Of a DNA stretch of 32,000 nucleotides, positions 6,336-28,424 are shown one piece after another. Both the position numbers and the translations under genes were made by a program. The notes beneath the pieces are model-generated. The model had not been told where the DNA came from and ran no database searches. It was given only the letters and a program-made list of their open reading frames with translations. Position 1 is the stretch's first letter. Each line of letters begins with the position of its first letter. Location: NCBI RefSeq assembly GCF_000012925.1, contig NC_007517.1, positions 1,740,001 to 1,772,000 of the forward strand, read 5' to 3'. The stretch comes from Geobacter metallireducens GS-15. Lineage in GTDB: Bacteria; Desulfobacterota; Desulfuromonadia; Geobacterales; Geobacteraceae.

Positions 6336-6399
6336 GGTGCACCTCCCTGATTGACAAAGGGTATGCTGCTGAACCGAACGTGCTTTCTAGTAGAGCATT

Positions 6400-8691: not shown

Positions 8692-8724
8692 GTAATTGTT
8701 GGTTGCCGCCTGTAGCCTAAATCA

Positions 8725-9372: not shown

Positions 9373-9408
9373 GATGTCTCTCCCCGGCCCCATGGCCGTC
9401 AGGTCGCG

Positions 9409-9834: not shown

Positions 9835-9856
9835 TCGTGTTCTCTCCTGAATCGTA

Positions 9857-10762: not shown

Positions 10763-10776
10763 AAGGCACTCCCGGT

Positions 10777-10810
10777 GGAAAAAGGGGCAACCGGATAACC
10801 GGTCACCCCT
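10777..10810 (-). terminator. Intrinsic terminator/attenuator hairpin after the Met/His-rich protein gene
   Basis: The minus-strand RNA is AGGGGUGACCGG-UUAU-CCGGUUGCCCCU followed by UUUUCC: a 12-bp stem (two G-U pairs), a tetraloop and a U-tract. It ends only about 15 nt before the ATG of the next gene (10762). Confidence 0.6.
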
Positions 10811-10835
10811 GGTGCCGACTTGACGCCGATCTTTC

Positions 10836-11318
10836 TTACTTCACCACGTACCAGAACTTGGCACTTCTCACCTTGCCGTCGGCCAGCTTGAACTTGGCCA
10901 TGACGCCGTACTTCCCCTTTTTGGAGAGGTCGAAATCGGCGCCGAAATGTCCTTGCATCGCCATCAGGTCCTTGACTTGCTCGGACTTGTTGGGGCCTTG
11001 GACTTTGACCTTCACCTCTCCTTCGGTAATCGCCTTGCCGCTCTTCGCATCCTTGAACTCAACGGCGATGTGGTGGGTCTCCTTCATCCCCTTCGGCATC
11101 TCCATCTTCATTCCCTTCATGTGCTCGGCCATGCTCATCACCTTGAAGGTGACCTTCACCCCGTCCACCACCTCCTGGTGGGCGACGTCACCCCCGTGAT
11201 CCATCTTCATTGAACCGTGGTCCATCTTCATGGAGCCGTGATCCATCTCCGCGTGGGAAACAAGGGGGGCCGCCAGGGCAAAGGTTGCCACTGCGATGAC
11301 TACTGGCAATTTCTTCAT
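10836..11318 (-). CDS. Periplasmic Met/His-rich metal-binding protein (candidate CusF-like Cu/Ag chaperone; possibly YtkA/FixH-like Ig fold)
   Basis: It has the signal peptide MKKLPVVIAVATFALAAPLVSHA. The mature N-terminus is EMDHGSMKMDHGSMKMDHGG, and further Met/His motifs follow (MAEHMKGMKMEMPKGMKETHH). It lies directly after cusA with a strong SD (AAGGAGAAG). The fold assignment is a guess. Confidence 0.6.
   Translation of the reverse strand: MKKLPVVIAVATFALAAPLVSHAEMDHGSMKMDHGSMKMDHGGDVAHQEVVDGVKVTFKVMSMAEHMKGMKMEMPKGMKETHHIAVEFKDAKSGKAITEGEVKVKVQGPNKSEQVKDLMAMQGHFGADFDLSKKGKYGVMAKFKLADGKVRSAKFWYVVK
11191..11250 (-). repeat. 21-nt in-frame tandem repeat (about 2.7 copies) encoding MDHGSMK
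   Basis: The coding strand reads atggatcacggctccatgaag / atggaccacggttcaatgaag / atggatcacggggg. The two full copies differ only at three synonymous positions. Confidence 0.9.
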
Positions 11319-11395
11319 TGTTCTTCTCCTTTTTATGGTGTGTTGAAATGGGTCAATGACCCTTCCTGAGAGCCGCCCACGGAGCGACTCTACAG

Positions 11396-14300
11396 CTAAT
11401 GCTTCATCCCTGAATACTTCAGTTTACCCTTTTTTAGATCATGTTTTTTCATCAACACAAAGATGACCGGCGTCATGATGAGGACATGGATGGCCGAGGA
11501 GATCATCCCCCCGATCATGGGGGCCGCGATCGGTTTCATGACGTCGGCGCCGGTACCGCTGGACCACATGATCGGTATCAGGCCGATGAGGGCCACTGCC
11601 ACGGTCATGAGCTTGGGGCGCAGCCGCAGCACCGCCCCCTCGAAGGTGGCATCATAGATGTCCTGCTCGGTGCATGGCCCGTTGATGAGCTTCTTGTCCA
11701 AGGCCTCATGGAGGTAGATGACCATCACCACCCCAGTCTCCACGGCGATGCCGTAGAGGGCGATGAAGCCGACCCAGACTGCCACCGACATGTTGTAGCC
11801 GAGGGCCTTCACCAGGTAGACCCCCCCCACCAGGGCGAAGGGGACCGAGAGCATGACCATGCTCGCCTCCAGGGCCGAGTGGAAGGTGAAGTAGAGGAGA
11901 ATGAAGATGATGAGCATCCCCGCCGGCACCAGGATCTGGAGGCGCTGCTTGGCCCGGACCTGGTTCTCCCACTGTCCCGACCATGCCACGTAGTAACCCG
12001 CCGGGAGCTTCAGGTTCTTTTCGAGGACGGTCTTTGCCTCACCCACAAAGCCCCCCATGTCGCGGCCACGCACGTTGAGGAAGACGATGGAGCGCAGCAG
12101 CCCTCCCTCGCTGTTGATCTCCGGCGCACCGGTGGAGACCTTGAGCTTCGTCACGAGCGACAGCGGCACCTGAGCCCCCTCCATGCCGCCCACGAGGATG
12201 CGCTGGATGGCCGGGATATTGTCACGATAGTCGCGCATATAGCGGATGCGGATCGGGAAGCGGTTGCGCCCCTCCACCGAGGTGGAGAGCATCTCGCCCC
12301 CCAGGGCGGTCTCGATGACATCCTGGATTTCGCCCACGTTCACCCCATAGCGGGCCGCGGCCTCCCGGTCGATGTCGATGTCGATGTAGTTGCCGCCGGT
12401 GACCCGCTCGGCCACCACGTCGGCAGCGCCGGGAACGGTCTTCAGAATCCCCTCGGCCTGGACCGCCAGGTCCTTGAGGACGTTCAGGTCGTTGCCGAAG
12501 ATCTTGACCCCCAGGTCGGTCCTGACCCCGGTGGAGAGCATGTTGATCCGGTTGATGATCGGCTGGGTCCAGCCGTTTCTGACGCCGATCTGCTGGAGCT
12601 TGGCATCCAGCTCCGAGACGATGTCGGCCTTGGTGACCCCGGCCCGCCACTTCTCCTTGGGTTTCAGGATGATGATCGACTCGAACATGGAGACCGGCGC
12701 CGGGTCGGTGGAGGTTTCGGCGCGCCCCACCTTGCCGAGGACGTGCTCCACCTCGGGGACGCTCTTGATGACTGTGTCCTGCACCTGGATAAGCCGCTTC
12801 GCCTCGGTTATGGAGATGTTGGGGAGCGTCACCGGCATGTAGAGGAGCGATCCCTCGTCAAGAGGGGGCATGAACTCGGAGCCGAGGGTCATGAACATCG
12901 GGATGGCGATGGCCAGGGCCACGAGGTTAAGGGCGATGGTGGTCTTTTTCCACTTCAGTACCCAGCGGATCACCGGCGAGTAGAGCCGGATGAAGAACAT
13001 GGAAACCGGGTTGGAGCTCTCAGGCGGCATCTTCCCCCGCATGAAGAAGAACATGAGGACCGGCACGAGCGTGATGGCGATGAAGGCCGATCCCACCATG
13101 GAGAAAGTCTTGGTGAAGGCGAGGGGGTGGAACATCTTCCCTTCCTGCCCCTCCAGGAGGAAGACCGGCACGAAGGAGAGGACGATGATGGCCAGGGAGA
13201 AAAAGATCGCTCGTCCCACCTGCTTGGCGCTTGTGATGATCACCTCCAGCCGCTTCTCTTTGCGCTCCTCGGGGGGGAGCTCGGAGAGGTGCCGGTAGCA
13301 GTTTTCCACCATGATGACCCCGGCGTCCACCAGCACGCCGATGGCAATGGCGATCCCCCCCAGGGACATGATGTTGGAGGTGACCCCCATGAGCTTCATG
13401 GTGATGAACGAGATCAGCACCGCAATTGGGAGGGTCAGCACGATCACCAGGGAGCTCTGGAAGTGGAGGAGGAAGGCGAGGATCACCAGGGATACCACCA
13501 CCGATTCTTCCAGCAGCGAGTGTTTCAGGGTGTCAATGGCCCGCATGATCAAATCGGAGCGGTCGTAGGAGACCATAATCTTTACGCCGGGGGGAAGCCC
13601 TTGCTCCAGAGACTTGATCTTCTCCTTCACCCGGTCGATGACGTCCTTGGCGTTCTCGCCGTAGCGCATGACCACGATGCCGCCCACCGCCTCCCCTTCG
13701 CCGTTCATGTCGAGGAGCCCCCGACGGATGGCGCCCCCCAGTTGCACGGTGCCGAGGTTCTTGACGTAGACCGGCGTGCCGCGCATGTCGGCGCCGACCA
13801 CGATGTCCTCCAGGTCCTTGGGAGACTTGATGTACCCCTTGCCGCGGATCAGGTACTCGGCGTCGGCCTGTTCCATGAGCCTGCCGCCCACGTCGTTGTT
13901 GGAGCGCTTCACCGCCTCCATAACCTGATCAACCTTGACGTTGTAAGCGAAGAGCCGGTTGGGATCCAGGTCGATTTGGTATTCGCGGACGTATCCGCCG
14001 ATGGAGGCCACCTCGGCCACGCCGGGGACGGTGTTCAGCTGGTAGCGGACAAACCAGTCCTGGAGCGTCCGGAGTTGTTCCAGGTCATATCCTTTTCCTT
14101 CCAGGGTGTACCAGAAGACATGGCCGACGCCGGTGCCGTCGGGGCCAAGCGTCGGGCGGACGTTGGGCGGCAGGAGCGATGCAGCGTAGTTGAGGCGCTC
14201 CAGCACCCGAGTTCTGGCCCAGTAGATGTCGGCCTTGTCCTCGAAGATGACATAGATCATGGAGAAGCCGAAGGCGCTCGACGCCCGGACGGCGCGCACC

Positions 14301-14533
14301 TGGGGCAGCCCCTGGAGGTTTACGGCCAGGGGATAGGTCACCTGGTCCTCCACCACCTGCGGCGAGCGTCCCGGATATTCGGTGAAGACGATCACCTGGT
14401 TGTCGGAGAGGTCGGGAATGGCGTCAACCGGCGTCCTGTAGACCGCCCATACCCCCGCAGCCACAATCAGGGCGAAGATCATGATGATAATGATGCGATT
14501 TCTCGCGGAGTAGTCGATGATTTTCTCAATCAC
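11396..14533 (-). CDS. cusA: Heavy-metal efflux RND pump, CusA/CzcA family
   Basis: 1045 aa. The N-terminus MIEKIIDYSARNRIIIIMIFALIVAAGVWAVYRTPVDAIPDLSDNQVIVFTEYPGRSPQVVEDQVTYPL closely follows the E. coli CusA pattern, and size and layout are RND-like. The GTG start has GGAGG 6 nt upstream. Confidence 0.92.
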   Translation of the reverse strand: MIEKIIDYSARNRIIIIMIFALIVAAGVWAVYRTPVDAIPDLSDNQVIVFTEYPGRSPQVVEDQVTYPLAVNLQGLPQVRAVRASSAFGFSMIYVIFEDKADIYWARTRVLERLNYAASLLPPNVRPTLGPDGTGVGHVFWYTLEGKGYDLEQLRTLQDWFVRYQLNTVPGVAEVASIGGYVREYQIDLDPNRLFAYNVKVDQVMEAVKRSNNDVGGRLMEQADAEYLIRGKGYIKSPKDLEDIVVGADMRGTPVYVKNLGTVQLGGAIRRGLLDMNGEGEAVGGIVVMRYGENAKDVIDRVKEKIKSLEQGLPPGVKIMVSYDRSDLIMRAIDTLKHSLLEESVVVSLVILAFLLHFQSSLVIVLTLPIAVLISFITMKLMGVTSNIMSLGGIAIAIGVLVDAGVIMVENCYRHLSELPPEERKEKRLEVIITSAKQVGRAIFFSLAIIVLSFVPVFLLEGQEGKMFHPLAFTKTFSMVGSAFIAITLVPVLMFFFMRGKMPPESSNPVSMFFIRLYSPVIRWVLKWKKTTIALNLVALAIAIPMFMTLGSEFMPPLDEGSLLYMPVTLPNISITEAKRLIQVQDTVIKSVPEVEHVLGKVGRAETSTDPAPVSMFESIIILKPKEKWRAGVTKADIVSELDAKLQQIGVRNGWTQPIINRINMLSTGVRTDLGVKIFGNDLNVLKDLAVQAEGILKTVPGAADVVAERVTGGNYIDIDIDREAAARYGVNVGEIQDVIETALGGEMLSTSVEGRNRFPIRIRYMRDYRDNIPAIQRILVGGMEGAQVPLSLVTKLKVSTGAPEINSEGGLLRSIVFLNVRGRDMGGFVGEAKTVLEKNLKLPAGYYVAWSGQWENQVRAKQRLQILVPAGMLIIFILLYFTFHSALEASMVMLSVPFALVGGVYLVKALGYNMSVAVWVGFIALYGIAVETGVVMVIYLHEALDKKLINGPCTEQDIYDATFEGAVLRLRPKLMTVAVALIGLIPIMWSSGTGADVMKPIAAPMIGGMISSAIHVLIMTPVIFVLMKKHDLKKGKLKYSGMKH

Positions 14534-14571: not shown

Positions 14572-15972
14572 TTACATTTTCATATCACCCATATCCATGC
14601 CGCCCCCCTTCTTCTGGGGAGGAGCGGACGGCGTGTGCCCTTCATGACCGGCCGGGGGAGCCGGAGCGCCTTTCTCCTCCATCTTCATCCCCGGCATGCC
14701 GGCATGGCCGCCGCCAGTCCCTTTCAGCTGCGCTTCGGAGTCGATCAGGTACCCGCCCGATGCCGCAACCTTTTCGCCTGCCTTCACCCCGGAGAGCACC
14801 TGGAGCATGTCCCCCACCCGGGCGCCCACCTTCACGTCCCGGGGCTCGAACATTCCCGGCTTCATCTCAACCCATGCTACCTGCCGCTTACCGGTGTCCA
14901 TCACTGCGGCCACCGGCACGGTCACGGCGGTGCCGAGCGGCACCTTGACCGACGCGTTCACGAACATGTCCGGCTTGAGCTTCAGGCCTGGATTGGGAAG
15001 TTGGACCCGCACCTTGACCGTCCGGGTCTTGGGGTCGAGGAAGGGGTAGACGAACGACACCCGACCCGAGAAGGTCTTACCGGGATAAGACTGGGAAACG
15101 ATGTCGACCCGCTGGCCGAGCTTTATGAAGGAGAATTCGTTTTCGTAGACCTCCACGTCCACCCAGACGGTGGAGAGGTCGGCGATGTTGAAGAGGGGAT
15201 CCCCCGTGTTCACGTACTGCCCCTCAATGGCGATCTTCTCGATCACCACCCCCGAGAGGGGGGTGTAAATAGGAAGACGGATATTGGGACGACCGGCCTT
15301 CTGAAGCCCTGCGATCTGGTGCTCCTTTACCCCCATGAGGAGGAGCCGCTGCCGGGCCGAGGCCACGAGCCCCTCTCCCCCCTGGGAGATGGAGGCAATG
15401 GGGGAGTCCTTGAACCGGTCGCGGCTCTTCAGTGCCAGGAGGTATTCCTGCTGAGCGGAGACGAGATCGGGCGAATAGACCTCGGCCACCGGTTTTCCCT
15501 TGGACACATAGGCGCCAACGGTGTTGACGTAGAGCCTGTCAATGCGGCCCGCCACCCACGCGGTGACCTTCGCCTGCCGGGACTGGTCGTACTGCACGAT
15601 GCCGACAGCATTCACCTCCTTGGTGAGGGGCATCGTCTTTGCCTCAACGGTGGCAACATTGGCCATCACCTGCTGGGAAGGCGAGAGGGAAACATGCTCG
15701 AGCATGGCCATTTCCTTGGCATCTGCCTGGGCGCCTTCCACTTTTTTGATGAGCTCCATCCCGCAAATGGGGCAGGTACCGGGCTTGTCCTTGATGATGA
15801 AGGGATGCATGGCGCAGGTGTAGAGCACCTTCCCCTGGGCGGCCTTTTCCCCCTGTTTTGCTCCTGTTGCGGTCTCCGCCTTCTGGTTGTGCCACAGGTA
15901 GTACCCCCCGCCGCCTGCCGCGGCCAGGAGAACCACTGCCACCGGAACTGCTACCTTTGCACTCAATTTCAT
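14572..15972 (-). CDS. cusB: Efflux RND periplasmic adaptor, CusB-like, with N-terminal heavy-metal-binding zinc-ribbon motif and Met/His-rich tail
   Basis: It has a signal anchor, the motif YTCAMHPFIIKDKPGTCPICGMEL, an HlyD/CusB-like body, and the C-terminal tail HAGMPGMKMEE...GGGMDMGDMKM. It sits between cusC and cusA. Confidence 0.88.
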   Translation of the reverse strand: MKLSAKVAVPVAVVLLAAAGGGGYYLWHNQKAETATGAKQGEKAAQGKVLYTCAMHPFIIKDKPGTCPICGMELIKKVEGAQADAKEMAMLEHVSLSPSQQVMANVATVEAKTMPLTKEVNAVGIVQYDQSRQAKVTAWVAGRIDRLYVNTVGAYVSKGKPVAEVYSPDLVSAQQEYLLALKSRDRFKDSPIASISQGGEGLVASARQRLLLMGVKEHQIAGLQKAGRPNIRLPIYTPLSGVVIEKIAIEGQYVNTGDPLFNIADLSTVWVDVEVYENEFSFIKLGQRVDIVSQSYPGKTFSGRVSFVYPFLDPKTRTVKVRVQLPNPGLKLKPDMFVNASVKVPLGTAVTVPVAAVMDTGKRQVAWVEMKPGMFEPRDVKVGARVGDMLQVLSGVKAGEKVAASGGYLIDSEAQLKGTGGGHAGMPGMKMEEKGAPAPPAGHEGHTPSAPPQKKGGGMDMGDMKM

Positions 15973-16045: not shown

Positions 16046-17326
16046 CTACTCCTGCAATTCCTTGCCGACCAGGGCCTCAAGCTGGGCGAGGCGCATCTGG
16101 TACTCGGCCAGGGATTCGTAATAGTCCCGTTCGTAGTTGAAGAGGGTCAGCCGGTTGTCGAGGAGCGTAAGGAAGTCGACCTTGTTTACCCGGTAGCCGA
16201 TGGTGGCGGATTCCAGCGACTGCTCCGCCTGGGGGATGATGCCGGTGCGGTAGAGCTTGGCGAGCTTCTCACGCCGCTCCAGCTGGGCCAGGCTGTCGGC
16301 GATGCCGAGATTGATGCTGTTGTTCAAGGTATTCAATTCTGCCGTCGCCATGGCGATCTCGGCCGACGACTCCCGGACCATGGCATGGCGCCGTTCCCGC
16401 TGGATCGGGAGATTGAAGGTGAGGCCAGCGCTGTACATGTCGTACCCAGCCTCCATGTCATTGATGGGATCCCGCTGCATATATTCGAAGGAGAGATTAA
16501 CGTCAGGAAAATACTCTTTTTCCGCCAGACGGTGTCCGGCTTCACCCTTCTCGATCTCGGCGCGCAGACTCTTGACCAGCGGCCGGTTCTCCTGCGCCAT
16601 GGAGCGGAGTTGGTCGGGGGACCAGGTAAAGGGCTTCAGTTCGAAGTCGGCAACTTTTCCCACCGGCGTTTCGGCGGGGCGGTAGAGCAGGGTGTTCAGG
16701 GTGGCCTGGAGGCTCTTTCGCTGCTGTTCCAGGGATATCTTCATGTCGACCATCTTCGAACGTTCAACCTGGGCCTTGAAGACGTCCTGCTGGGCCCCCT
16801 GGCCCACGGAGTATTTCGTTTCGGCAAGGGCGATGAAGTCATCCATGATCCGGATATTCTTCTCGACGATCTGCAACTCCTTGTCGGTCAGAAAGATTTG
16901 GTACCAGGTCTCCTTCACCATCCGGGCCAGTTCCAACTTCCGCTCCGCCACCTGCCACTTGAGCGCCTCGGCCTCCCTCGACGCCACCTCGGCCTTCAGG
17001 TCCCGCTTCCCCCAGAAGGGGAGTTGCTGCGAGATGCCGATCACCCGCTGGCTCATGGGATCACGCCGGGAATTGAAGGGATCGCGGATCAGGAAGCTCT
17101 GCATCTTGAGCATGAGCATCGGATCGTCAAGGGCACCCGCTTGGGCCACGCGGTTGCGGAACATCTCCCAACGGGCCTCGGACGCCTTCACCTCGGGATT
17201 GTTGGCGAGGGCAGCATCGACAAGCTGAGGGAGATTTTCGGATGGTTTTGTTTCCTCGGCCGGTGCCTGGTACGGAAGCGCCAGCACCGCGAGAAGCATG
17301 AACCCGATTGCGAGACGTGATTTCAT
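16046..17326 (-). CDS. cusC: TolC-family outer membrane efflux protein, CusC-like
   Basis: It shows the outer-membrane-efflux repeat architecture. The signal peptide MKSRLAIGFMLLAVLALPYQAPA starts at the ATG at 17326, preceded by AGGAGA. The track ORF extends to 17383, but those extra 19 aa lack signal-peptide character. Confidence 0.85.
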   Translation of the reverse strand: MKSRLAIGFMLLAVLALPYQAPAEETKPSENLPQLVDAALANNPEVKASEARWEMFRNRVAQAGALDDPMLMLKMQSFLIRDPFNSRRDPMSQRVIGISQQLPFWGKRDLKAEVASREAEALKWQVAERKLELARMVKETWYQIFLTDKELQIVEKNIRIMDDFIALAETKYSVGQGAQQDVFKAQVERSKMVDMKISLEQQRKSLQATLNTLLYRPAETPVGKVADFELKPFTWSPDQLRSMAQENRPLVKSLRAEIEKGEAGHRLAEKEYFPDVNLSFEYMQRDPINDMEAGYDMYSAGLTFNLPIQRERRHAMVRESSAEIAMATAELNTLNNSINLGIADSLAQLERREKLAKLYRTGIIPQAEQSLESATIGYRVNKVDFLTLLDNRLTLFNYERDYYESLAEYQMRLAQLEALVGKELQE

Positions 17327-17439
17327 GGGGTCTCCTGGAGGTTGTAGATAGTTATGACTATCCATTTGCCGTGCCAAAAGCAAATTGGCTGATTTTACGG
17401 CTTATATTCAACTTGTGCCGCTTGTTCGATGGCGAGCAT

Positions 17440-17478
17440 GCAGAATATTCGACAGCAGCATCAGAATATTCTCTACTG
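17440..17478. promoter_or_regulatory. Two AGAATATTC boxes (candidate operator/UAS) upstream of cusC
   Basis: gCAGAATATTCgaca (17440-17454) and tCAGAATATTCtctactg (17461-17478) are spaced 21 bp start to start. The core GAATATTC is palindromic. The reverse complement of 17463-17476 is GTAGAGAATATTCT, identical to 28571-28584. Confidence 0.5.
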
Positions 17479-17775
17479 TCGTGGCTAGTTCACTCTAGTT
17501 TTTATCGGCGAGTTTTTAATTAATTTTAGTTGTTTTGTAAAAAAATTTTTCCATTTGGCAAAGTAGAGACAAGAGCGCGGTGCAATCACTTGCTGCCAAT
17601 CTGGATGATTTGCATCTGCATATCCATCCCTGCCTTCATGGCGGTGATGTTGGCCTCGTAGGCCCGGGTTAGGGCGGGACGGATCCGCCGATACGGCTCT
17701 AACCTGTTAAATAATGCCACTTCATTTCTTGTTGTCAATGTGTCTGGCAGATGTAAGTGCCTAACATTACGCCTG

Positions 17776-18186
17776 TTATTGCATGAGGAACCAAAGGAGC
17801 GGAAACAGCTGGTCCGGTTCGTAGGGTTTGTGAACTATACCCGACGCACCTGCCATTGCTGCTTTTTTCCCGAAATCTTCGGGCGGGTCGGCGACACCGA
17901 GAATAACTAAAAGGCTGGGCTGATTCTCGAGCGCTGCACGGGTCAGTTCGATCCCGTCCATATCGGGAAGCAGGGCATCGGCAACTAGGACTTTCCATGG
18001 TTCATCTTTAAGCACCAAGAGCGCCTCTTCGCCGTTTTCCACGCGGGTAACCCTCAAACCGTTACGAATTAGCAACGACTCAATGGTGGCGCACTGCTTC
18101 CCTGCGGTCACGAAAAGAAAGTCGCCGCTCTCTGGCCAGGTCTCTTTCGAATTCATTTCTTCTCTGTTGTGGGCCAAATTCAGCAT
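17776..18186 (-). CDS. Single-domain response-regulator receiver protein, probably degenerate (pseudo-receiver)
   Basis: By-eye alignment to CheY shows the phospho-Asp (VLVADALLPDMDG) and the Lys (VHKPY) present. The beta1 acidic pair is replaced (FLFVTAGKQ) and the conserved Thr/Ser is replaced by Gly (LVILGVA). Its ATG overlaps the TGA of the ABC ATPase gene by 1 nt. Confidence 0.7.
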   Translation of the reverse strand: MLNLAHNREEMNSKETWPESGDFLFVTAGKQCATIESLLIRNGLRVTRVENGEEALLVLKDEPWKVLVADALLPDMDGIELTRAALENQPSLLVILGVADPPEDFGKKAAMAGASGIVHKPYEPDQLFPLLWFLMQ

Positions 18187-18851
18187 CAGATCACCCTCCC
18201 GTCCCGAATGTGAATTGTCCGGTCGGTGTACTGGCAGTTTTCCGGGTTGTGGGTCACCATCACCACGGTCTGACCCTCGTCGTTCAGTTCCCGAAAAAGG
18301 GCCATGACCGCCTCGCTGTTGGCGGTATCGAGGTTGCCGGTGGGCTCGTCGGCAAAGAGGATGTGGGGGCGGTTGACGATGGCGCGGGCGATGGCCACCC
18401 GCTCCTGTTCGCCACCGGAGAGCTGGTTCGGCAGCCGGTCCGCTTTGCCGCCGAGCCCGACCCGTTCCAGGGCCTGGAGGGCCGCTTGCCGTTTCTCGTC
18501 GCCCTTCAGGGACGCGATGGTCAGGGGGAGCATGACGTTCTCCTGGGCCGTGAGATAGGGGATCAGGTGGAACGACTGGAAGACGAAGCCGAAGTTCCCG
18601 GCCCGAAAATCGGCCAGCCGCTCCTCTCCCAAGGCGTAGAGGTCGGTTCCGTTGACCGTCACCTTGCCGCTGGTCGGGTGGTTCATGCCGCCGAGGATGG
18701 AAAGAAGGGTGCTTTTCCCTGACCCCGACTGTCCCATAATGGTGATGAACTCGCCGGTCTCGATGCCGATGTCGACCCCCCGCAGCGCCTCCACCGTCTC
18801 ATCACCGCAGGAGTAGTGCTTGGTTAGATTACTGATCTCGATGAGTGCCAT
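18186..18851 (-). CDS. ABC transporter ATP-binding protein, MacB/LolD/FtsE-like
   Basis: Walker [10 protein letters not shown], signature LSGGEQERV, Walker B ILFADEPT. 221 aa, with no fused permease. Confidence 0.9.
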
Positions 18852-18906
18852 GGTTAAATACTCCGTTATTCTCGTTTGTCCGGTCCCTAGTCCCCGGTCC
18901 CCGCTG

Positions 18907-20067
18907 TTACAGTGCCCGCAGGGCTTCCGTGGGGTCCATACGGCTGGCGTGGAGTGCCGGATAGAGGCTCGCTAGGAGCCCCACCGTCACGGCGAGGCCG
19001 ATGGAGCCCGACGCCACCAGTCCGTCCCAGACAAGGGCCGCTTTGGCAGACTCGGCCATGAAGGGGAGGGCGAGCCGGGCCGCCCCCATTCCCGAAAGAT
19101 AGCCCAACGCGCCGGCCAGCAGGCTCACCAGGGACGCCTCCAGGAGGATGATCCGCATAATGTGGCTCTTTCTGAAACCGATGGCCCGGAAGACGCCGAT
19201 CTCGGTGGTCCGCTCGTTGACGCTCCCCATCATGGTCACGAAGACGATAAGTGAGCCGATGAAGATCACCACCCCGGCGACCCCGTAGGAGAAGCGCTTG
19301 AACTGGTCGAGGGTCTTGAGCCGCGACTCCACCACCTGCTGAATGGCGGTGACCTTCGCCTCCGGAAGCTTCTCGGCGATCTGGACGACCATGTCGCCGA
19401 TGGGGCAACCGGCGCAGAGCGCCGCCACTTCCACAAGCGTGATCTTGTCCTCCTTGCCGAGGATCTTCTGGGCCTTTTTCAGGGGCGCGAAGACCAGCGA
19501 GTCGTCCTGGGAGCCGGTCTGTTCCAGGATTCCCGCCACCTTCAGGGCCTCGCCCCCGATGGTCACCGAGTCGCCGGGGGAGAGGTGGAGCGTGTCGGCG
19601 GTGGTGCTGCCGAGGAGGATTTCGTTCTCAGTCTTCGGCTCGTCGCCGAAGATCCGCCACCACTGCTTCATCTTGAGCTCTTCCGCGAAGTTAACCCCCA
19701 CGAGGAGAACGTTTTTCTCCTTCAGAGTCGCCGCACCAAGCACCTTGGGAGAGACCGCGAGGATGTTTTTGTTGTTTTTGATCTCTCGGATTCTCGCCAG
19801 GTCCCCCTCATGGATCTCCTGCTGGTCGAAGCTTACCCGGCCGAGGCTGATGCCGCCGTAACTCATGGCCAAGTCCTCGCTTCGGGGCATGATGAGGATG
19901 TTGGCGCCGAACTCGTCCATCTTGCGGCCGATGTCGTTGGACATGGATTCGGTGAGGGTCACGAGCGTGACGATGGTGGCGATGCCGACCATGAGGCCGA
20001 TGGTGAGAAACGCCATCTTCGCTTTGCGCCGCCGCAGGTTATTGAGTGATATGGAGTGGAGTTTCAT
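18907..20067 (-). CDS. ABC transporter permease, FtsX/MacB-type with large periplasmic loop
   Basis: 386 aa. It starts MKLHSISLNNLRRRKAKMAFLTIGLMVGIATIV (typical MacB/FtsX TM1), followed by a roughly 200-aa extracytoplasmic segment and three C-terminal TM helices. Confidence 0.85.
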   Translation of the reverse strand: MKLHSISLNNLRRRKAKMAFLTIGLMVGIATIVTLVTLTESMSNDIGRKMDEFGANILIMPRSEDLAMSYGGISLGRVSFDQQEIHEGDLARIREIKNNKNILAVSPKVLGAATLKEKNVLLVGVNFAEELKMKQWWRIFGDEPKTENEILLGSTTADTLHLSPGDSVTIGGEALKVAGILEQTGSQDDSLVFAPLKKAQKILGKEDKITLVEVAALCAGCPIGDMVVQIAEKLPEAKVTAIQQVVESRLKTLDQFKRFSYGVAGVVIFIGSLIVFVTMMGSVNERTTEIGVFRAIGFRKSHIMRIILLEASLVSLLAGALGYLSGMGAARLALPFMAESAKAALVWDGLVASGSIGLAVTVGLLASLYPALHASRMDPTEALRAL

Positions 20068-20091
20068 GGTATCGATGCCTCGCCGGTCCGA

Positions 20092-20637
20092 TTAGAAATA
20101 GCGCGCTCCCTGCTGGAGATCGGAAGCCTTTACGATGATGTTCCTGCCGTCGCTGGTGGCGGGGAGGTACGAGGGATTGCAGCCGCCGACGGAGTGGGGG
20201 CCGATCCGGTTGATTTGGAACTTCTTGCCGCAGTTCTTGCACAGCATGGTGTCGCCATCTTGGACATACCCCTTCTTCTCCCGGAAGCAGACGTCGCAGG
20301 AATCAAAGGCGGTGTGAAACTGGCCGTCGCTTCCCTTCACCACGAGAAACCTGATCTCCTTGCCGCCCTCGGTGTAGCGGTAGAAGTGGGCGCTGCCGTC
20401 GGAAACTTTGGTCAATGGAATTGCTACCGTGCCGTTGACCGCCTTTACCTTCTCGACGCCGGACAAGCCGGGGAAATTGAGGGCAAACACCGTAGCTACC
20501 CCGGCCAGTAGTGCCCCTGCCACCAGAATTCCCCATTTGAAACCCTTCTTCGCTGCTTTCACGTTTACCTCCTCGCCCTCGGGCTTATTGATGGTTTCGA
20601 CCTGTCTATTTTCTTTTTCTCTCATTTTCTTCCCCAT
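20092..20637 (-). CDS. Membrane-anchored Cys-cluster protein, DUF2318-like
   Basis: It has one N-terminal TM helix (WGILVAGALLAGVATVFAL). The soluble domain carries CDVCFREKKGY...CKNCGKKF...GGC, the conserved Cys pattern I associate with DUF2318. Confidence 0.65.
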   Translation of the reverse strand: MGKKMREKENRQVETINKPEGEEVNVKAAKKGFKWGILVAGALLAGVATVFALNFPGLSGVEKVKAVNGTVAIPLTKVSDGSAHFYRYTEGGKEIRFLVVKGSDGQFHTAFDSCDVCFREKKGYVQDGDTMLCKNCGKKFQINRIGPHSVGGCNPSYLPATSDGRNIIVKASDLQQGARYF

Positions 20638-20639
20638 GG

Positions 20640-21059
20640 TCAGTTCCTTTCCGGCTTCTTGGACTTGTCACAGCAGCCACAGCCGCCACTGCGGGCCTGG
20701 GTGGGGCCGCTCATTCTGGTTTTCTCCCGGTAGCTATCGGCGCTCATGGTTTCCTGAACGGTGCTCTGGTACCCTGCATCGCTTACCGTTGCCGCCAGCT
20801 TCTGGGGGGTGGCCGTGTTGTCATGCCAGACCGATACCAGGCCAGCCTCAATGTTGACATCCACGGAAGCAACCCCCGGCACCGTTTCCAGAGATTTGGT
20901 TATCTTCGACACACAGCCGCCGCAGGAGATCCCAGTGGATTTCAGCTCCGTCACCGCCTCCGGTGAGCCTGATGAAAGCGCCGCTCCCGCACCAAGGACA
21001 ACTCCCAGCGCCGCCACCATCACCAGCCGAAAAATTTTAGATATCTGTCCTCGTCTCAT
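20640..21059 (-). CDS. Signal-anchored heavy-metal-associated (HMA) domain protein with Cys-rich C-terminal tail (copy 2)
   Basis: MRRGQISKIFRLVMVAALGVVLGAGAAL is followed by an HMA fold with the variant metal loop GISCGGCVSKI and the tail SGGCGCCDKSKK. The ATG at 21059 has GGAG 7 nt upstream. The 223-aa track ORF is an unsupported N-terminal extension. Confidence 0.8.
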   Translation of the reverse strand: MRRGQISKIFRLVMVAALGVVLGAGAALSSGSPEAVTELKSTGISCGGCVSKITKSLETVPGVASVDVNIEAGLVSVWHDNTATPQKLAATVSDAGYQSTVQETMSADSYREKTRMSGPTQARSGGCGCCDKSKKPERN

Positions 21060-21084
21060 ATGTATCTCCTTTCCCGAATACATC

Positions 21085-21513
21085 CTATATTGCATTACCG
21101 CAGCCGCCGGAGTCGCAACCGCCAGTGCCGCACCCACCGGACCGGACCACCTTCGCACCGAAATCCCGACCCGTAACCCGCCGGAAATCGGCGAGCGACA
21201 TCTGCTCCATGAGCCAGCTCTGAAATCCGGCCTTGCGGACCGCTCCGGCAAATGTCTCCGGATTGGCCGAATTGGTGTCGTACCCCACCAGAACCCACCC
21301 GCCCTTGACATCCACCTCGACCCCCGCCACCCCTTTCATCGGCTTGAGGGCCTTTTCTATCTTGCCGGCACAGCTGCCGCAGGTCATCCCGACGGTCTTG
21401 AGGGCCGCCACTGCGTTGGGGATAGGCGCAAGCCTGACGTTGAAGGCGAGATACACGAGAAGCCCCACGGCGCATGCCACCAGGATTCCGGTTCCTACTG
21501 TTCTTTTTCGCAT
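21085..21513 (-). CDS. Signal-anchored heavy-metal-associated (HMA) domain protein with Cys-rich C-terminal tail (copy 1)
   Basis: MRKRTVGTGILVACAVGLLVYLAF is followed by the canonical loop GMTCGSCAGKIEKAL and the tail SGGCGTGGCDSGGCGN. The ATG at 21513 has AGAGGAA upstream. It is a paralogue of the downstream gene, including the shared linker M-S-x-A-D-F/Y-R. Confidence 0.8.
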   Translation of the reverse strand: MRKRTVGTGILVACAVGLLVYLAFNVRLAPIPNAVAALKTVGMTCGSCAGKIEKALKPMKGVAGVEVDVKGGWVLVGYDTNSANPETFAGAVRKAGFQSWLMEQMSLADFRRVTGRDFGAKVVRSGGCGTGGCDSGGCGNAI

Positions 21514-21974
21514 GGTCAATTTCCTCTGACTCTCATCTCTTTCGCCGTCTGCCTTCGTCTGTACAGTCGAATACAAAAGCTGGGCCAATTGTAAAACTAC
21601 CTGAAATTACATAAAAAATGCCTAAATGTTATCGTTGCGGTAATTAAATGTGAGGAATAATCAACAGCACACTGTCTGATATTAGTCATGAATTGAGAGC
21701 GTAAATCAATCTTTGCAATAGTAAGCATACGAAGGCAACGGCTTGCTATAAAACTGTAGGTAAACTTTCCTGCAGAAGTCGATATAAGTTGTTGCAGAAA
21801 ATTCAACAACCGTTGTGGGATATTCCCTAATAAGTTGATTGCATAGATAATGTTATTTAAAAAAACCTTGCGATCTCGAAGTGTTAAGCAATGGCCCACC
21901 ATTTGCTAGGTACGGTACAATATTTCACGTCTTGGAGGTTTTCTGGTGCTTCTCCTGGCGGTGGAATTATATTG

Positions 21975-22095: not shown

Positions 22096-22269
22096 ATGGG
22101 AAAAGTTGTTCTGATGCTCGCGATTACGGGAACTGTCGCGCTTCTGTCCGGATGCGCCGTTATTGATTTTCTCGACGGCAAGCATTTCGACAACACAACC
22201 GACTACGAAAGGCCCCAATACAACTCGGGAAGCTATGATAGCGGTCATGGCGGGGGACACTCACACTGA
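22096..22269 (+). CDS. 57-aa mini-lipoprotein with His-rich C-terminus (…SGHGGGHSH)
   Basis: AAAGGAGA lies 6 nt upstream of the ATG. The sequence is MGKVVLMLAITGTVALLSG|CAVIDFLDGKHFDNTTDYERPQYNSGSYDSGHGGGHSH, with a classical lipobox. It is too short for the ORF track. Confidence 0.6.
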   Translation: MGKVVLMLAITGTVALLSGCAVIDFLDGKHFDNTTDYERPQYNSGSYDSGHGGGHSH

Positions 22270-22290: not shown

Positions 22291-22482
22291 ATGAACGTTC
22301 GAGCTGAAGAGGTATCGTCAGGAATGCTGAGCAAGATGTTCTTTTTCAAGTTTACGGTTCTGACATCGCTGGTTCTTGGGTTGACGCTGGCTCATCCGAC
22401 AGCCACGATTGCCCACAAGGGGGCACAGAAACTCTGCTCGATCTTGATGCAGAATAATAGTGACTGCCAAAAGGCTTGCTGA
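22291..22482 (+). CDS. Small secreted three-Cys peptide (hypothetical)
   Basis: AAAGGAGAA lies 7 nt upstream of the ATG at 22291; alternative ATGs are at 22270 and 22324. The sequence is ...[52 protein letters not shown], with a hydrophobic signal-like segment and a Cys-containing tail. The start and the coding status are uncertain. Confidence 0.4.
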
Positions 22483-22514
22483 CAGCGCGAAAATTAAAGA
22501 GACGAGGATACTCT

Positions 22515-22664
22515 ATGAAAGCACTTCTCTTTTCGGCACTCATCATCGGCGCGTTTCTGACATCGGGATGCATGATGCTCATGCCGGGAGACCACATGGG
22601 ACACCATGGTGCACAGGACGAAGCGGCGGAGCGGCAGACCGGCAGCGGTGGTCACTCCCACTGA
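22515..22664 (+). CDS. 49-aa mini-lipoprotein, Met/His-rich, C-terminus …SGGHSH
   Basis: [18 protein letters not shown]|[31 protein letters not shown] has a lipobox, and GAGG lies about 9 nt upstream. It shares the G-G-H-S-H end with the ORF at 22096. The track ORF begins 13 codons earlier. Confidence 0.6.
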
Positions 22665-24328: not shown

Positions 24329-25282
24329 ATGAAGAAATCTTATCTCATACATGGGGCAAAGGGCAGGGTCGTCATCTTGGTTTTATTGACGGCTGTTATC
24401 GCCTTGTTCCATTTTGTCGTGCCGACCGAGTCTCACGTCTATCATGCGCTGCATATCGTACTCCGTAAGCTCTACTTCCTCCCTCCTGTAATGGCAGGTG
24501 CCTGGTTTGGCCTAAGGGGTGCTGTCTACACGACATCGGCCGTCACAATCCTTTTTTCCCTCCATGCTTTTCTCGACTGGCCGGGGAACTACATGGAGCA
24601 GGCCAACCAGATGGGGGAACTTGCCAGTTTCTGGGTAGTAGGGCTTGTCTCCGGCTGGCTCTTCGACCGGCAGCGGGCACTTCTCGCGGAGCTTGCCACG
24701 GCCAACGAAGAGACACTCCTGGCTCTCGTTTCGGCCCTCGACATGAGGGCAAAAAACAGCCGGCTCCATTCCCTGCGGGTACGGGAAATTGCCCTCCGTC
24801 TTGCTGACCATCTGGGTGTAACCGAAAATGAAAGAAAGGCGATAGGATTTGGTGCGTTGCTGCACGAAGTGGGAAAAGTTTCAATTCACGATTCCGTGTT
24901 TACCCTCTTAAAACGGGTCGGTCTCCCGGAATTAGAACTGAAGGAAATGCGCTCGTACCCCGAAGCGGGGTATAATTTACTGCGGAAAATCGGTTTTCTC
25001 CGTGAAGCGGCAGAGATCGTCCGTGCCCACCAGGAACATTTCGACGGAAGCGGCTACCCACGCGGCCTCAGAGGGGAGGAGATTCCGCTTGGTGCAAGGT
25101 TGCTGCTGATTGCAGACACTTTCGAGAAACTCATTACCGGCATCGGTGCCGTTCAGTGCGAGGAGGCTGTCAGAATTATTCGGGAAGGTTCAGGAGGAGA
25201 ATTCGATCCGGGACTCGTGGACCTCTTTACGGGAATCGGTTGCGACGAATTGAGCCACGTGGCGAGCGCGAAAGATGAGTAG
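24329..25282 (+). CDS. Membrane-anchored HD-GYP domain protein (variant catalytic motifs)
   Basis: The N-terminal roughly 120 aa hold several TM helices. The C-terminal domain reads HSLRVREIA...LLHEVGKV...HQEHFDGSGYPRGLRGEEIPLGARLL. GYP is intact, but HD reads HE and HHE reads HQE. Confidence 0.8.
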   Translation: MKKSYLIHGAKGRVVILVLLTAVIALFHFVVPTESHVYHALHIVLRKLYFLPPVMAGAWFGLRGAVYTTSAVTILFSLHAFLDWPGNYMEQANQMGELASFWVVGLVSGWLFDRQRALLAELATANEETLLALVSALDMRAKNSRLHSLRVREIALRLADHLGVTENERKAIGFGALLHEVGKVSIHDSVFTLLKRVGLPELELKEMRSYPEAGYNLLRKIGFLREAAEIVRAHQEHFDGSGYPRGLRGEEIPLGARLLLIADTFEKLITGIGAVQCEEAVRIIREGSGGEFDPGLVDLFTGIGCDELSHVASAKDE

Positions 25283-25444
25283 TCGGAACCCGGGTATGCA
25301 TGGATTGAGCAAATTGCCGCGGTCATTCACGCTATAGTTACTGACAATGCATGTTCAGGAAGGTGCTTAAGGAGGGAGGTGATACCAAGGGGATGACGGG
25401 TGTTATTCGGTTGTAGATCATTTAAACAAGAGAGGAGAATGAAG

Positions 25445-25813
25445 ATGAGAAGAATTGCTGTCGTATTTGGAATGTTCGCCCTTTCGCTTGTGGTGTTCGC
25501 CTCTTTCTCAGCCGGGGCTGCAGACAAGAAAGCGAAGAGTGAAGTGGTGATGAAGGTGGGTAACAAGGTCCATCTCTTTCACAGCGGCACTGCCGACGTA
25601 AAAAAAGAGATCTGCCCGAACGACGTGATTACCGTCTACCGGGAGATTGGTGGGGCCAAGAATCCCAAGTCAATTGAAGTTGGGCAGGTCAAAGTGCTTT
25701 CGTACGTTAGTGCTCACTACTTTGAGGCCGAAGTGGTCAAGGGAGAGGTGAAGCCTGGCGACATCGCCATGAAAGAATCGGCTGCCTGCCTGATTCAACC
25801 TGTGAAACACTGA
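25445..25813 (+). CDS. Small secreted protein, unknown family (paralogue A)
   Basis: It has the signal peptide MRRIAVVFGMFALSLVVFASFSAGA. GGAGA lies 6 nt upstream of the ATG at 25445, and an ATG at 25439 is also possible. It is alignable by eye with 26103-26429 (…VYREIGG…VGQVKVLSYVSAHYFEAEVVKGEVKPGD vs …VYRYTGL…VGKVRITGYAGEHHLEGVVVEGNIQGND). Confidence 0.7.
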   Translation: MRRIAVVFGMFALSLVVFASFSAGAADKKAKSEVVMKVGNKVHLFHSGTADVKKEICPNDVITVYREIGGAKNPKSIEVGQVKVLSYVSAHYFEAEVVKGEVKPGDIAMKESAACLIQPVKH

Positions 25814-26102: not shown

Positions 26103-26429
26103 ATGGGAACTTTTAAAAGGTTAGCCATTGGCGTAATAGTCCTTGTACTTCCGTTGCTGATGACCGCCTGTATTGGCCCCAGAGCGACAGTCACGGTTAT
26201 TGCCAAACCGGGGGATACCGTTCAGCTTCTTCATCCGGGGCCAAAGGCCGCTAAAGAGGAGTTTTCTCACAATGAGATCGTCCCCGTCTATCGGTACACT
26301 GGACTCAGGAAGTACGGGGGCTACAAGGAAGTGGGAAAGGTCAGGATTACAGGTTATGCAGGGGAACACCATTTGGAAGGAGTGGTGGTCGAAGGAAATA
26401 TCCAGGGCAACGATTTCGTAGAGAAGTAA
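26103..26429 (+). CDS. Small lipoprotein, unknown family (paralogue B)
   Basis: GGGAGGG lies upstream of the ATG. It has the lipobox LLMTA|C and is a paralogue of 25445-25813. Confidence 0.7.
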   Translation: MGTFKRLAIGVIVLVLPLLMTACIGPRATVTVIAKPGDTVQLLHPGPKAAKEEFSHNEIVPVYRYTGLRKYGGYKEVGKVRITGYAGEHHLEGVVVEGNIQGNDFVEK

Positions 26430-28106: not shown

Positions 28107-28424
28107 CTAGGAAATGCAGCAAGGGGCAAATCCCAACTTTTCACCTGCCGCACCGATTTCCTTCTTCAGATCTCCTATCTGATTTTCGAGGGCAGTTGTC
28201 CTGTTAGTGTCGATGCTGTTCATACCGTATTCAACGCTCAGTTCTATCTCCTTCTCATTCAGGCTTTTCCTCAAATGGGCAGTCTTGCTCTTGAACTGTT
28301 GAACCGCCTGCGGATCCTTGCACTTAGCGTCATCTCCGCACGAGCCACACGATGCAGCATATGACACTCCTCCGTACATAAGCACCAGAGCTGCCACGAT
28401 TCCATAAGAGATTTTCCTTTTCAT
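28107..28424 (-). CDS. Small secreted coiled-coil protein with N-terminal CxxCxxxxxC and C-terminal CC (hypothetical, possible periplasmic metal/redox stress protein)
   Basis: It has the signal peptide MKRKISYGIVAALVLMYGGVSYA. The mature part is ASCGSCGDDAKCKDP...helical K/E/L-rich...GFAPCCIS. GGAGGA lies upstream of the ATG. Confidence 0.65.
   Translation of the reverse strand: MKRKISYGIVAALVLMYGGVSYAASCGSCGDDAKCKDPQAVQQFKSKTAHLRKSLNEKEIELSVEYGMNSIDTNRTTALENQIGDLKKEIGAAGEKLGFAPCCIS

Follow-up and report, generated by a model that had tools for sequence, protein, structure and literature searches.

We analyzed a 32,000-nucleotide (nt) stretch of the Geobacter metallireducens GS-15 genome (NC_007517.1, positions 1,740,001 to 1,772,000; the window hereafter means this whole stretch, and positions are counted from its first nucleotide), which carries a six-gene module upstream of the efflux genes cusCBA. 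We found that the conserved core of this module is a triad of a DUF2318 protein, a single FtsX-type permease, and an ATP-binding cassette (ABC) ATPase, and that the unit conserved in Geobacterales is this triad together with one HMA-domain protein bearing a Gly/Cys tail. We proposed that the module uses ATP and cysteine thiolates to handle Cu(I), and probably Ag(I), at the outward-facing side of the cytoplasmic membrane, a reading to which we assign a probability of roughly 45%. The genes of the module are as follows.

HMA1: 21085-21513, minus strand; anchored HMA protein with GMTCGSC and a Gly/Cys tail (Pfam HMA, 7.8e-15).
HMA2: 20640-21059, minus strand; second anchored or secreted HMA protein, with GISCGGC (Pfam HMA, 2.2e-14).
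DUF2318/FtrD-like protein: 20092-20637, minus strand; 181 amino acids (PF10080, 4.9e-34).
FtsX permease: 18907-20067, minus strand; MacB_PCD (2.1e-18) and FtsX (4.7e-21).
ABC ATPase: 18186-18851, minus strand; ABC_tran (6.2e-35).
Degenerate receiver: 17776-18186, minus strand; Response_reg (2.5e-14).

These six genes had been described in the original prediction as co-oriented and tightly packed, and the coordinates, the gaps (25, 2, 24, and 55 nt), and the single 1-nt overlap all agree with the list of open reading frames (ORFs). The ORF of HMA1 extends to 21588, an alternative upstream start, with the annotated start at 21513; that of HMA2 spans 20640-21311, its true start being 21059. Genes called independently on public contigs that encode the identical DUF2318 protein were the same six, and the module proteins correspond to ABB31785-ABB31790 (the 142-amino-acid form of HMA1 is ABB31790, and HMA2 is identical to ABB31789), with exact matches in G. 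metallireducens GS-15 and RCH3. The proposed family assignments (HMA, DUF2318, MacB_PCD/FtsX, ABC_tran, and receiver) were all upheld in the Pfam profile search, and none of the six proteins reached the cut-off of a curated NCBIfam equivalog.

A pattern scan of 185,579 species genomes returned 391 stretches encoding relatives of the module, of which the best 80 loci were analyzed; here and for the metagenomes below, the locus sets are the best-scoring 80 of larger lists, and the percentages describe those samples. These loci came almost entirely from Geobacterales or Desulfuromonadales. An HMA gene lies directly before the DUF2318 gene in 72 of the 77 loci with room for it, the permease follows DUF2318 in 63 of 75, and both permease and ATPase are found in 62 of 74, a gene arrangement far beyond chance. 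In addition, Cus genes were observed within 10 kb in 23 of the 27 loci that have full 10-kb flanks and a permease. The genes after the ATPase varied (a small receiver, a FlgC-like gene, CysK, or an M23 peptidase); the commonest were a kinase of ~370 amino acids with a His-rich membrane domain and a sigma54-dependent regulator, placed before cusCBA. Thus, co-conservation was confirmed for the triad and one HMA protein, but not for the six-gene set, which we gave up as a conserved entity in view of this survey: the receiver is often replaced or accompanied by the histidine kinase and sigma54 regulator, and the pair of HMA genes with which the module was said to begin, although present here, is exceptional (7 of the 77 loci), one HMA gene being the norm.

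Two loci illustrate the copper context of the relatives. In Geobacter sp. DSM 9736, the order is multicopper oxidase, cytochrome c, HD protein, HMA, HMA, DUF2318, FtsX, ABC, receiver, kinase, sigma54 regulator, and CusCBA. On plasmid pPRO1 of Pelobacter propionicus, a CsoR-like regulator, a heavy-metal P-type ATPase, an HMBD protein, an HD protein, and a short hypothetical gene are followed by HMA, DUF2318, FtsX, ABC, M23 peptidase, kinase, sigma54 regulator, TolC, a membrane-fusion protein, and CusA. The permease was absent from 12 loci, from Geomonas, Citrifermentans, and related metagenome-assembled genomes; the HMA-DUF2318 pair was present in 11 of these 12, and the kinase directly preceded the pair in 10 of 11. 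A shorter second locus of this kind was seen in L012, L014, L017, L020, L023-L025, L033, L035, and L036 (~8000-14000), consisting of the kinase, HMA, DUF2318, and a conserved, cytoplasmic-looking protein of 209 amino acids, which also follows the ATPase in the full Geomonas/Citrifermentans loci; multihaem cytochromes follow it in L012.

The triad is not limited to Geobacter and its relatives. A profile search of 1.84 billion representative proteins gave 1825 DUF2318 clusters at 50% identity (E up to 1e-3, all architectures), the best 150 of which were mostly short anchored forms of 150-260 amino acids, with some repeat and fusion variants. All four distant members on long contigs (one Chloroflexota genome and three metagenomes) adjoin a MacB-type permease of 385-402 amino acids and an ATPase, and no HMA, Cus, FTR1, or P19 gene was found in these four well-flanked loci; three further distant members, on contigs of 1-2 kb, had no gene context. 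A fifth distant triad locus adds a thioredoxin and an anchored protein with little beyond a Gly/Cys tail. When the metagenomes were scanned with a profile of the distant members, 80 further loci were obtained, in which the permease follows DUF2318 in 61 of the 66 with room and permease plus ATPase in 36 of 38. In five metagenome loci without a permease, what comes immediately after DUF2318 is a CopZ-like HMA protein, a P1B ATPase containing two HMA domains, or both; the one complete P1B ATPase among these carries CPC, YN, and MxxSS, which we take to be the Cu(I)/Ag(I) P1B-1 signature of Arguello's classification. The order HMA-DUF2318-FtsX-ABC-CusCBA recurs in L121, from a distant metagenome lineage, and several other loci have larger HMA proteins upstream. 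Two distant triad loci (L089, 5567-6921; L091, 8044-9074) stand beside a BlaI/CopY-family repressor, which lacks the CopY-type C-terminal Cys motif, and an M56/M48 membrane peptidase.

These observations bear on the iron-uptake connection of DUF2318. The original prediction described the combination of DUF2318, FtsX-type permease, and ATPase as known only from loci with FTR1/P19 and noted that neither gene is present at the module. The latter point holds: phmmer searches with E. coli FTR1 and P19 had no match in the window or at any of the 80 related loci, and no TlpA/thioredoxin homologue was detected in either. The former does not, since the single-permease triad without FTR1/P19 is widespread, occurring in the Chloroflexota genome and in metagenomes. 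Likewise, the data sampled here do not bear out a published claim (PMC6083913) by which DUF2318 "almost always" maps to Fet clusters.

The permease has four transmembrane (TM) segments by hydropathy (residues 15-42, 258-285, 302-325, and 349-374), with a periplasmic domain of ~215 residues (~43-257) between the first and the second; MacB_PCD covers residues 21-210. Its sole two cysteines, C218 and C221, form an outward-facing LCxxCP motif and are invariant in 64 of 64 Geobacterales permeases; LCxxCP was also found in 48 of 53 full-length metagenome permeases, the five exceptions being the second permease of two-permease loci. The homologues are 76-97% identical to the window protein, with a mean column identity of 88% (58 homologues). 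The permease profile matched MacB, YtrF, and LolE chains, and the sequence places the protein in the type VII (MacB/LolC-like) ABC class; it is probably homodimeric. Structural studies have established that members of the MacB/LolC/FtsX class have no transmembrane substrate channel and act on substrates outside the cytoplasm by mechanotransmission. The AF2 (AlphaFold) model of the permease, from a 58-sequence alignment, had a predicted local distance difference test score (pLDDT) of 60, and below 50 around the CxxC, and was not used for fold search or geometry; LCxxCP is placed at a strand-to-helix junction in this low-confidence model. The ATPase, on the cytoplasmic side, retains intact Walker A, Q-loop, LSGGE signature, ILFADE Walker B, and H-loop motifs; among the NCBIfam models, LolD and MacB come nearest to it, each scoring below its cut-off, with FtsE also among the best. 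The receiver was correctly described as a pseudo-receiver: in alignment with CheY, the phospho-acceptor D57 and K109 are kept, the Mg-binding acidic pair D12/D13 is replaced by V/T, and T87 by V. Its orthologues in L002 and L006 are similarly degenerate, and that in L084 (DSM 9736) is canonical.

The DUF2318 protein appears to consist of a Lys-rich cytoplasmic N-terminus, a single TM helix, and an outward-facing domain. Its cysteines are arranged as C114xxC117-x15-C133xxC136-x16-C153; all five are invariant in an 87-sequence alignment, at an identity of ~60%, and the spacing CxxC-x15-CxxC-x15/16-C was found in 344 of the 374 DUF2318 proteins collected. The AF2 model (87 sequences) had a pLDDT above 90 over most of the domain, and every one of its top 50 Foldseek matches was a Rieske ferredoxin or Rieske domain (E 1e-5 to 1e-3, target-normalised TM-score ~0.6), so that a Rieske-like fold is predicted; neither a single-sequence nor a profile search found a sequence relative of DUF2318 in the PDB. 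The domain would lie outside the cytoplasm because one member, P0285, is a lipoprotein fusing a thioredoxin-like domain to DUF2318, and because long Ser/Pro/Ala linkers follow the TM helix in some members. A twin-arginine translocation (Tat) motif occurs in only ~6 of the 374 members, a small clade, and is lacking in ~98%. Therefore, the site is probably filled outside the cytoplasm as a rule, which would favour a mononuclear soft metal over an iron-sulfur (Fe-S) cluster. Variant architectures (P0268, P0276, P0285, P0288, P0319, P0338, and P0475; L101) include two to four tandem domains, an N-terminal zinc finger followed by a TM helix and DUF2318, the thioredoxin-like lipoprotein fusion, and a Tat-signal lipoprotein clade adjoining CopZ.

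The HMA partners share a common design. In the 75 partners in which the HMA CxxC could be located (four further orthologues are without the motif), a short basic stretch and an N-terminal hydrophobic helix precede a GMTCxxC-type HMA domain, a conserved linker LTPEQFKQITGRDIG lies between this domain and the tail, and the Gly/Cys-rich tail contains at least two Cys in 75 of 75, usually three or four. In HMA1, the TM segment spans residues 4-31, with MRK on its N side, as judged from hydropathy and charge, and the C-terminal tail is SGGCGTGGCDSGGCG; HMA2 ends in SGGCGCCD. The best-scoring models for both HMA domains were the NCBIfam CopZ models, and the MerP/MerTP matches were weak (MerP, 39 and 37 bits against a cut-off of 92.6). 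Two candidate interpretations were rejected: a mercury-resistance reading by these model scores and by the gene context, and HMA1 as a lipoprotein, as the Cys of its lipobox-like "LVAC" is not conserved in orthologues and sits within a 28-residue hydrophobic stretch. Distant triad loci (L085, 7579-7971; L092, 9512-10087 and 5860-6426) encode anchored, nearly pure Gly/Cys-rich proteins, such as SSCGGLCGSPSCGAARGGSCGCGG, which resemble the tails of the Geobacter HMA partners, and, in L092, also a secreted Gly/Met/His-rich protein.

Downstream of the module lie the Cus genes and a spacer, and upstream of HMA1 a non-coding block.

cusC: 16046-17326, minus strand; outer-membrane factor (OEP, 1.4e-46); 426-amino-acid gene call on the identical public contigs.
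cusB: 14572-15972, minus strand; membrane-fusion protein (HlyD_D23, 7.3e-83; HMBD, 1.1e-11).
cusA: 11396-14533, minus strand; Cu(I)/Ag(I)-type heavy-metal efflux pump of the resistance-nodulation-division (RND) class; CusA/CzcA NCBIfam model above cut-off.
160-amino-acid secreted protein: 10836-11318, minus strand; directly after cusA, with three MDHGSMK-type repeats and no Pfam match.
FlgC-like gene remnant: 17586-17738, minus strand; 50-amino-acid ORF in the receiver-cusC spacer, matching the C-terminus of intact 134-amino-acid genes in L004-L006.
Non-coding block upstream of HMA1: 21574-21692, minus strand; GAATAT..GATTATTCCTCA, then TGGCCCAGCTTTTGT, resembling a sigma54 -24/-12 element.

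CusA scored 1039 bits to E. coli CusA versus 616 to ZneA, and it keeps the Met triad M573/M623/M672 (LLYMP, SMFE, INMLSTG; alignment to 3t51/3k07), which is known to form the Cu(I)/Ag(I) site of CusA. With the Cus genes beside most of the fully flanked relatives, this substantiates the soft-metal (Cu/Ag) context proposed for the module. The module had been said to abut the pump; genuine CusCBA is indeed next, but ~450 nt separate the receiver from cusC (spacer 17384-17775), and this interval holds the gene remnant and a sigma70-like match, TTGACA-16-CATTAT, at 17738-17711. By comparison with the relatives, the kinase and sigma54-regulator pair has been lost from the spacer, in which the FlgC-like remnant was kept. 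CusB has an N-terminal HMBD domain rich in Cys/His/Met and a Met/His-rich C-terminal tail. The 160-amino-acid MDHGSMK protein, which has homologues in 25 of the 80 related loci and directly follows the ABC gene in L068 and L072, may be a periplasmic Cu(I) carrier and a functional replacement of CusF. No CusF was recognised among the small periplasmic proteins scanned in the window, none of which had a Pfam match; no CusF-specific comparison was made. A cobalt study describes G. sulfurreducens as lacking CusF (PMC7726332). The block upstream of HMA1, conserved among four close relatives (five upstream regions aligned), is tentatively a candidate operator and promoter. Over 73 loci, the strict sigma54 pattern TGGCAC-N5-TTGC was not recurrent, being found upstream of cusC in three Geomonas loci only and upstream of HMA in about one, and a relaxed pattern matched at the background rate.

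The literature adds little to this picture. The genes GSU1338-GSU1341 of G. sulfurreducens, listed among "three general metal efflux pumps" in a comparative genomics study (PMC3495685), form a putative homologous module, on the basis of the annotation of GSU1340 and the closeness of the G. soli and G. anodireducens proteins. In a microarray table, GSU1340 (permease, -2.17) falls together with GSU1330 (Cus-type outer-membrane factor, -2.0) and GSU1333 (PMC2680965). Apart from this "metal efflux pump" label, only the Fet accessory genes emerged from the literature, in keeping with the earlier view that no system of this composition has been characterised. The component families are known, as is, genetically and from Fet clusters, the association of DUF2318 with FtsX-type ABC genes; the single-permease LCxxCP subfamily, its HMA/Cys-tail partner, its systematic embedding in Cu/Ag islands, and the DUF2318-CopZ-CopA pairing appear to be undescribed.

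From these data, we proposed the following mechanism. A type VII ABC motor and three kinds of cysteine sites facing outward in the predicted topology (HMA domain plus tail, DUF2318, and LCxxCP) share one gene cluster. Periplasmic Cu(I) would be captured by the high-affinity thiolates of the HMA domain and its tail and passed by ligand exchange to DUF2318 and to the CxxC of the permease. ATP binding and hydrolysis would then move the periplasmic domain by mechanotransmission, distorting the site and forcing the release of Cu(I) to lower-affinity acceptors, which might be the HMBD (Cys/His/Met) of CusB, the Met triad of CusA, or the 160-amino-acid Met/His-rich protein, and CusCBA would finally expel the metal. 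ATP would thus pay for the transfer of Cu(I) from tight Cys sites to weaker Met sites. An added benefit could be the shielding of apocytochrome c thiols (CxxCH) in a cytochrome-rich anaerobe, and the same DUF2318/FtsX/ATPase engine may serve other partners in other lineages. Periplasmic copper handling is currently viewed as passive chaperone exchange combined with proton-driven RND efflux. If our proposal is true, an ATP-consuming step is added to it, which would explain how Cu(I) held tightly by thiolates can reach weaker Met sites. One LCxxCP permease and an anchored DUF2318 protein define a widespread type VII ABC subfamily that can be recognised from sequence. The proposal offers copper handling as a testable hypothesis for the Fet accessory genes of pathogens, and it bears on how Geobacter, a genus applied in bioremediation and bioelectrochemistry, tolerates metals and forms metal nanoparticles.

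Several points weigh against this copper-handling reading. The HMA-DUF2318 pair occurs without FtsX/ABC in the second Geomonas locus, and the four distant triad loci have no recognisable metal gene nearby; since the triad is found in a Chloroflexota genome without Cus and at loci without metal genes, the feeding of an RND pump is not its universal role. The module has no membrane-fusion protein of its own. The predicted Rieske-like fold, the Pfam name "iron-sulfur containing", and the Tat clade would suit an Fe-S or redox role. The topology was assigned from hydropathy and charge rather than by a dedicated predictor, and the CxxC of the permease could not be placed in three dimensions from a model with a pLDDT of 60. 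The joint fall of GSU1340 and GSU1330, which favours co-regulation of the module with cus, is an indirect link, and a literature search on the module, GSU1330-1341, Gmet_154-156, PF10080, and Geobacter copper omics found no functional, structural, or metal-response study.

A broader version of the proposal, which we consider unlikely, makes the triad a general, hitherto unrecognised engine that uses ATP to load extracytoplasmic proteins with Cu(I) or to unload it from them. In Geobacterales, it would strip Cu(I) from the anchored HMA/Cys-tail carriers for CusCBA; in the lineages with DUF2318-CopZ-CopA, it would accept the Cu(I) exported by the P-type ATPase; and in the Fet systems, the diverged two-permease FetA-FetBCD with FetE/F would insert the copper needed by P19/FetP for iron transport. 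Copper is reportedly required for P19/FetP iron transport (Chan et al. 2020, as cited in PMC10783030). The genes fetA, fetB, fetC, and fetD are each needed for low-iron growth in C. jejuni (PMC10783030, PMC6083913), and the likeness of fetA-D mutants to fetP mutants in phenotype would be explained if the Fet version metallates P19/FetP.

A redox relay is another explanation that we regard as rather improbable. Here, a Rieske-like Fe-S or dithiol/disulfide DUF2318, the permease CxxC, and the HMA cysteines would pass electrons or reducing equivalents on the outer side of the cytoplasmic membrane, which might keep metal-binding thiols reduced or reduce Cu(II)/Fe(III), with the ABC proteins supplying or gating the reductant, as proposed for FetABCDEF (PMC10783030). 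The predicted Rieske ferredoxin fold and a box spacing like CxH-x15-17-CxxH are consistent with this, but the DUF2318 ligands are CxxC/CxxC instead of the Rieske Cys/His sets. The Pfam/NCBI annotators chose the name "Fe-S-containing" and a Tat-signal clade exists; however, ~98% of the members have plain membrane anchors and no Tat motif, so that insertion of an Fe-S cluster in the cytoplasm is unlikely. Genes or fusions of thioredoxin type occur with the triad in Fet clusters, L085, L134, L135, and P0285, and the Geomonas short loci adjoin multihaem cytochromes, as seen in L012, whereas the Geobacterales loci have no thioredoxin, and their neighbours are HMA, Cus, and CopA genes. To our knowledge, no type VII ABC system exports reductants, which also counts against this explanation.

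The frequent regulatory neighbours raise the possibility of a sensory transporter resembling BceAB-BceRS, which would detect periplasmic Cu(I), signal to the kinase without a periplasmic sensor domain, to the small receiver, or to an HD-GYP protein, and set cusCBA expression instead of moving the metal. The kinase with the His-rich membrane domain is beside the module in 51 of the 80 loci and the sigma54 regulator in 38 of the 80; the same kinase directly precedes HMA-DUF2318 in the Geomonas loci without FtsX/ABC; the small receiver often overlaps the end of the ABC gene; and an HD-GYP protein of the window has the membrane domain of the kinase. However, the window contains the module and cusCBA but neither the kinase nor the regulator, its receiver is degenerate, the triad occurs in many loci without two-component genes, and the permease is of the four-TM MacB-like rather than the 10-TM BceB type. 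A catalytic role would account just as well for the very strong purifying selection seen on the permease and its CxxC. Thus, a sensory role is quite unlikely.

The same machine could, alternatively, act on another thiophilic metal (Hg, Cd, Zn, Pb, or Au), as a MerP-like periplasmic scavenger. All-Cys sites are, as a matter of general chemistry, good ligands for Hg(II), Cd(II), and Zn(II), and the MerP/MerTP matches, weak as they are, point the same way; interactions of Geobacter with Hg are known (reference cited in PMC7726332). On the other side, the HMA domains score far below the MerP cut-off and higher with the CopZ models, the scanned ORFs of the window include no MerT, MerA, or MerR, the neighbouring pump keeps the Met triad of the Cu/Ag type, and at other loci the module or DUF2318 is partnered by CsoR-CopA, by a multicopper oxidase, or by CopZ with a P1B-1 ATPase, so that we hold a different metal to be very unlikely. 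Finally, a conventional exporter pumping metal ions or a chelate from the cytoplasm across the inner membrane is highly improbable: the ATPase is intact and GSU1338-1341 carry the label "general metal efflux pump" (PMC3495685), but the permease is of the MacB/LolC/FtsX class, all conserved Cys face outward, and there is no cytoplasmic metal-binding domain.

The surroundings of the module contain further genes of interest. Divergent from the HMA operon are two small predicted lipoproteins (22096-22269 and 22476-22664, plus strand; lipoboxes LSGC and LTSGC), which both end in GGHSH and may be copper-binding; one has a Met/His-rich stretch, and the first has homologues in 10 of the 80 loci. The HD-GYP-type protein (24329-25282, plus strand), with true orthologues in ~19 loci, has a His-rich membrane N-terminal domain of ~110 amino acids without a Pfam family; this domain is common to the histidine kinases flanking the module in relatives (32% identity, E 4e-18) and may be an undescribed intramembrane metal-sensing domain. 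The 160-amino-acid protein is followed by a string of minus-strand genes (9857-10762, 9409-9834, and 8725-9393) encoding a Germane-domain lipoprotein, a small secreted protein ending in CNECH (cytochrome c'-like), and a 222-amino-acid protein ending in a YHS domain, which in FetA is joined to DUF2318; the three recur together in L038 and L063. Secreted proteins without a Pfam match are encoded at 28107-28424 (minus strand; small, with CGSCGDDAKC near the N-terminus and APCCIS at the C-terminus) and at 25400-25813 and 26103-26429 (plus strand; 137 and 108 amino acids), the latter two being apparently related to each other (HLFHSG / QLLHPG). The region 2442-8691 encodes a glycyl-radical enzyme (PFL-like plus Gly_radical), its radical-SAM activase, and, divergently, a XylR-type sigma54 activator; it resembles a locus for the anaerobic activation of aromatics or hydrocarbons and seems to have no connection with the metal genes.

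Among known systems, the Fet clusters are the natural point of comparison. FetMP-FetABCDEF of C. jejuni, E. coli, and Yersinia shares with the window the DUF2318 signature CxxC..CxxC..C and an FtsX-type permease or permeases and ATPase in the same order. The E. coli plasmid cluster encodes FTR1, P19, a 459-amino-acid FetA (multi-TM, DUF2318, YHS), two permeases, an ATPase, and a TlpA-like protein, and both FetB and FetC are without LCxxCP; PLSDB has 797 E. coli plasmid records with this cluster (FTR1, P19, FetA, two permeases, ATPase, and TlpA), most of them conjugative plasmids of IncF type. The DUF2318 spacing is CxxC-x13-CxxC-x14/15-C in Fet proteins and has x15 and x16 in the window, with the Cys invariant. 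FTR1, P19, TlpA/thioredoxin (FetE/F), and the two distinct permeases of Fet clusters are absent from the window, which has a single permease; FetA combines eight TM segments, DUF2318, and YHS in one protein, whereas the DUF2318 protein of the window has one TM segment, with YHS on a separate protein (8725-9393). The LCxxCP permease, the HMA partners, and the Cus neighbour are features of the window. Because Fet has FTR1/P19, a multi-TM FetA, and two permeases without LCxxCP, the window represents, by its sequence features, a single-permease, LCxxCP-bearing subfamily distinct from the Fet type.

With the type VII ABC systems (MacAB-TolC, LolCDE, FtsEX, and YbbAP), the module shares the four-TM FtsX-domain permease, the MacB-type periplasmic core, and the LolD/MacB-like ATPase, and mechanotransmission on a periplasmic partner would be expected; its partner, however, is a Cys-rich protein of predicted Rieske fold. 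Unlike MacAB-TolC, it has no membrane-fusion protein of its own, the sole one being CusB-type; the permease scored 58.9 with the MacB model versus a cut-off of 966, and its invariant periplasmic CxxC is absent from MacB in the alignment. The LolCDE models were similarly distant (lolCE, 58 bits versus a cut-off of 362; LolE, 51 versus 439). BceAB-BceRS resembles the module in that an FtsX-family ABC transporter is encoded beside a histidine kinase without an obvious periplasmic sensor domain, as in many of the relatives, but it differs in the 10 TM segments of its permease versus four, in an OmpR-type versus a sigma54-type regulator, and in the kinase, which is missing from the window. The Rieske [2Fe-2S] ferredoxins share the predicted fold of DUF2318 and two metal-binding boxes ~15 residues apart; their boxes are CxH/CxxH, whereas those of DUF2318 are CxxC/CxxC (CDVC and CKNC) without His ligands, with a fifth invariant Cys and, in nearly all members, no Tat signal.

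The closest functional parallels to the proposed mechanism are NosDFY-NosL and CcmAB-CcmE. NosDFY delivers Cu to N2O reductase in an ATP-driven manner, with NosL as a Cu(I) chaperone, and CcmAB uses ATP to free CcmE, an anchored haem chaperone. Both systems rely on conformational changes powered by an ABC ATPase to shift a cofactor between membrane-tethered periplasmic carriers and not across the membrane. Both have ABC-2-type permeases instead of FtsX, and the acceptor of the module is presumed to be an efflux pump instead of an enzyme; the module has no known homology to NosD, NosL, or CcmE. As for CusCFBA, CusB and CusC accompany an adjacent pump that is a genuine CusA, Met triad included, and the window differs in having the 160-amino-acid Met/His-rich protein, the anchored HMA proteins, the ABC module, and a CusB with an extra N-terminal HMBD.

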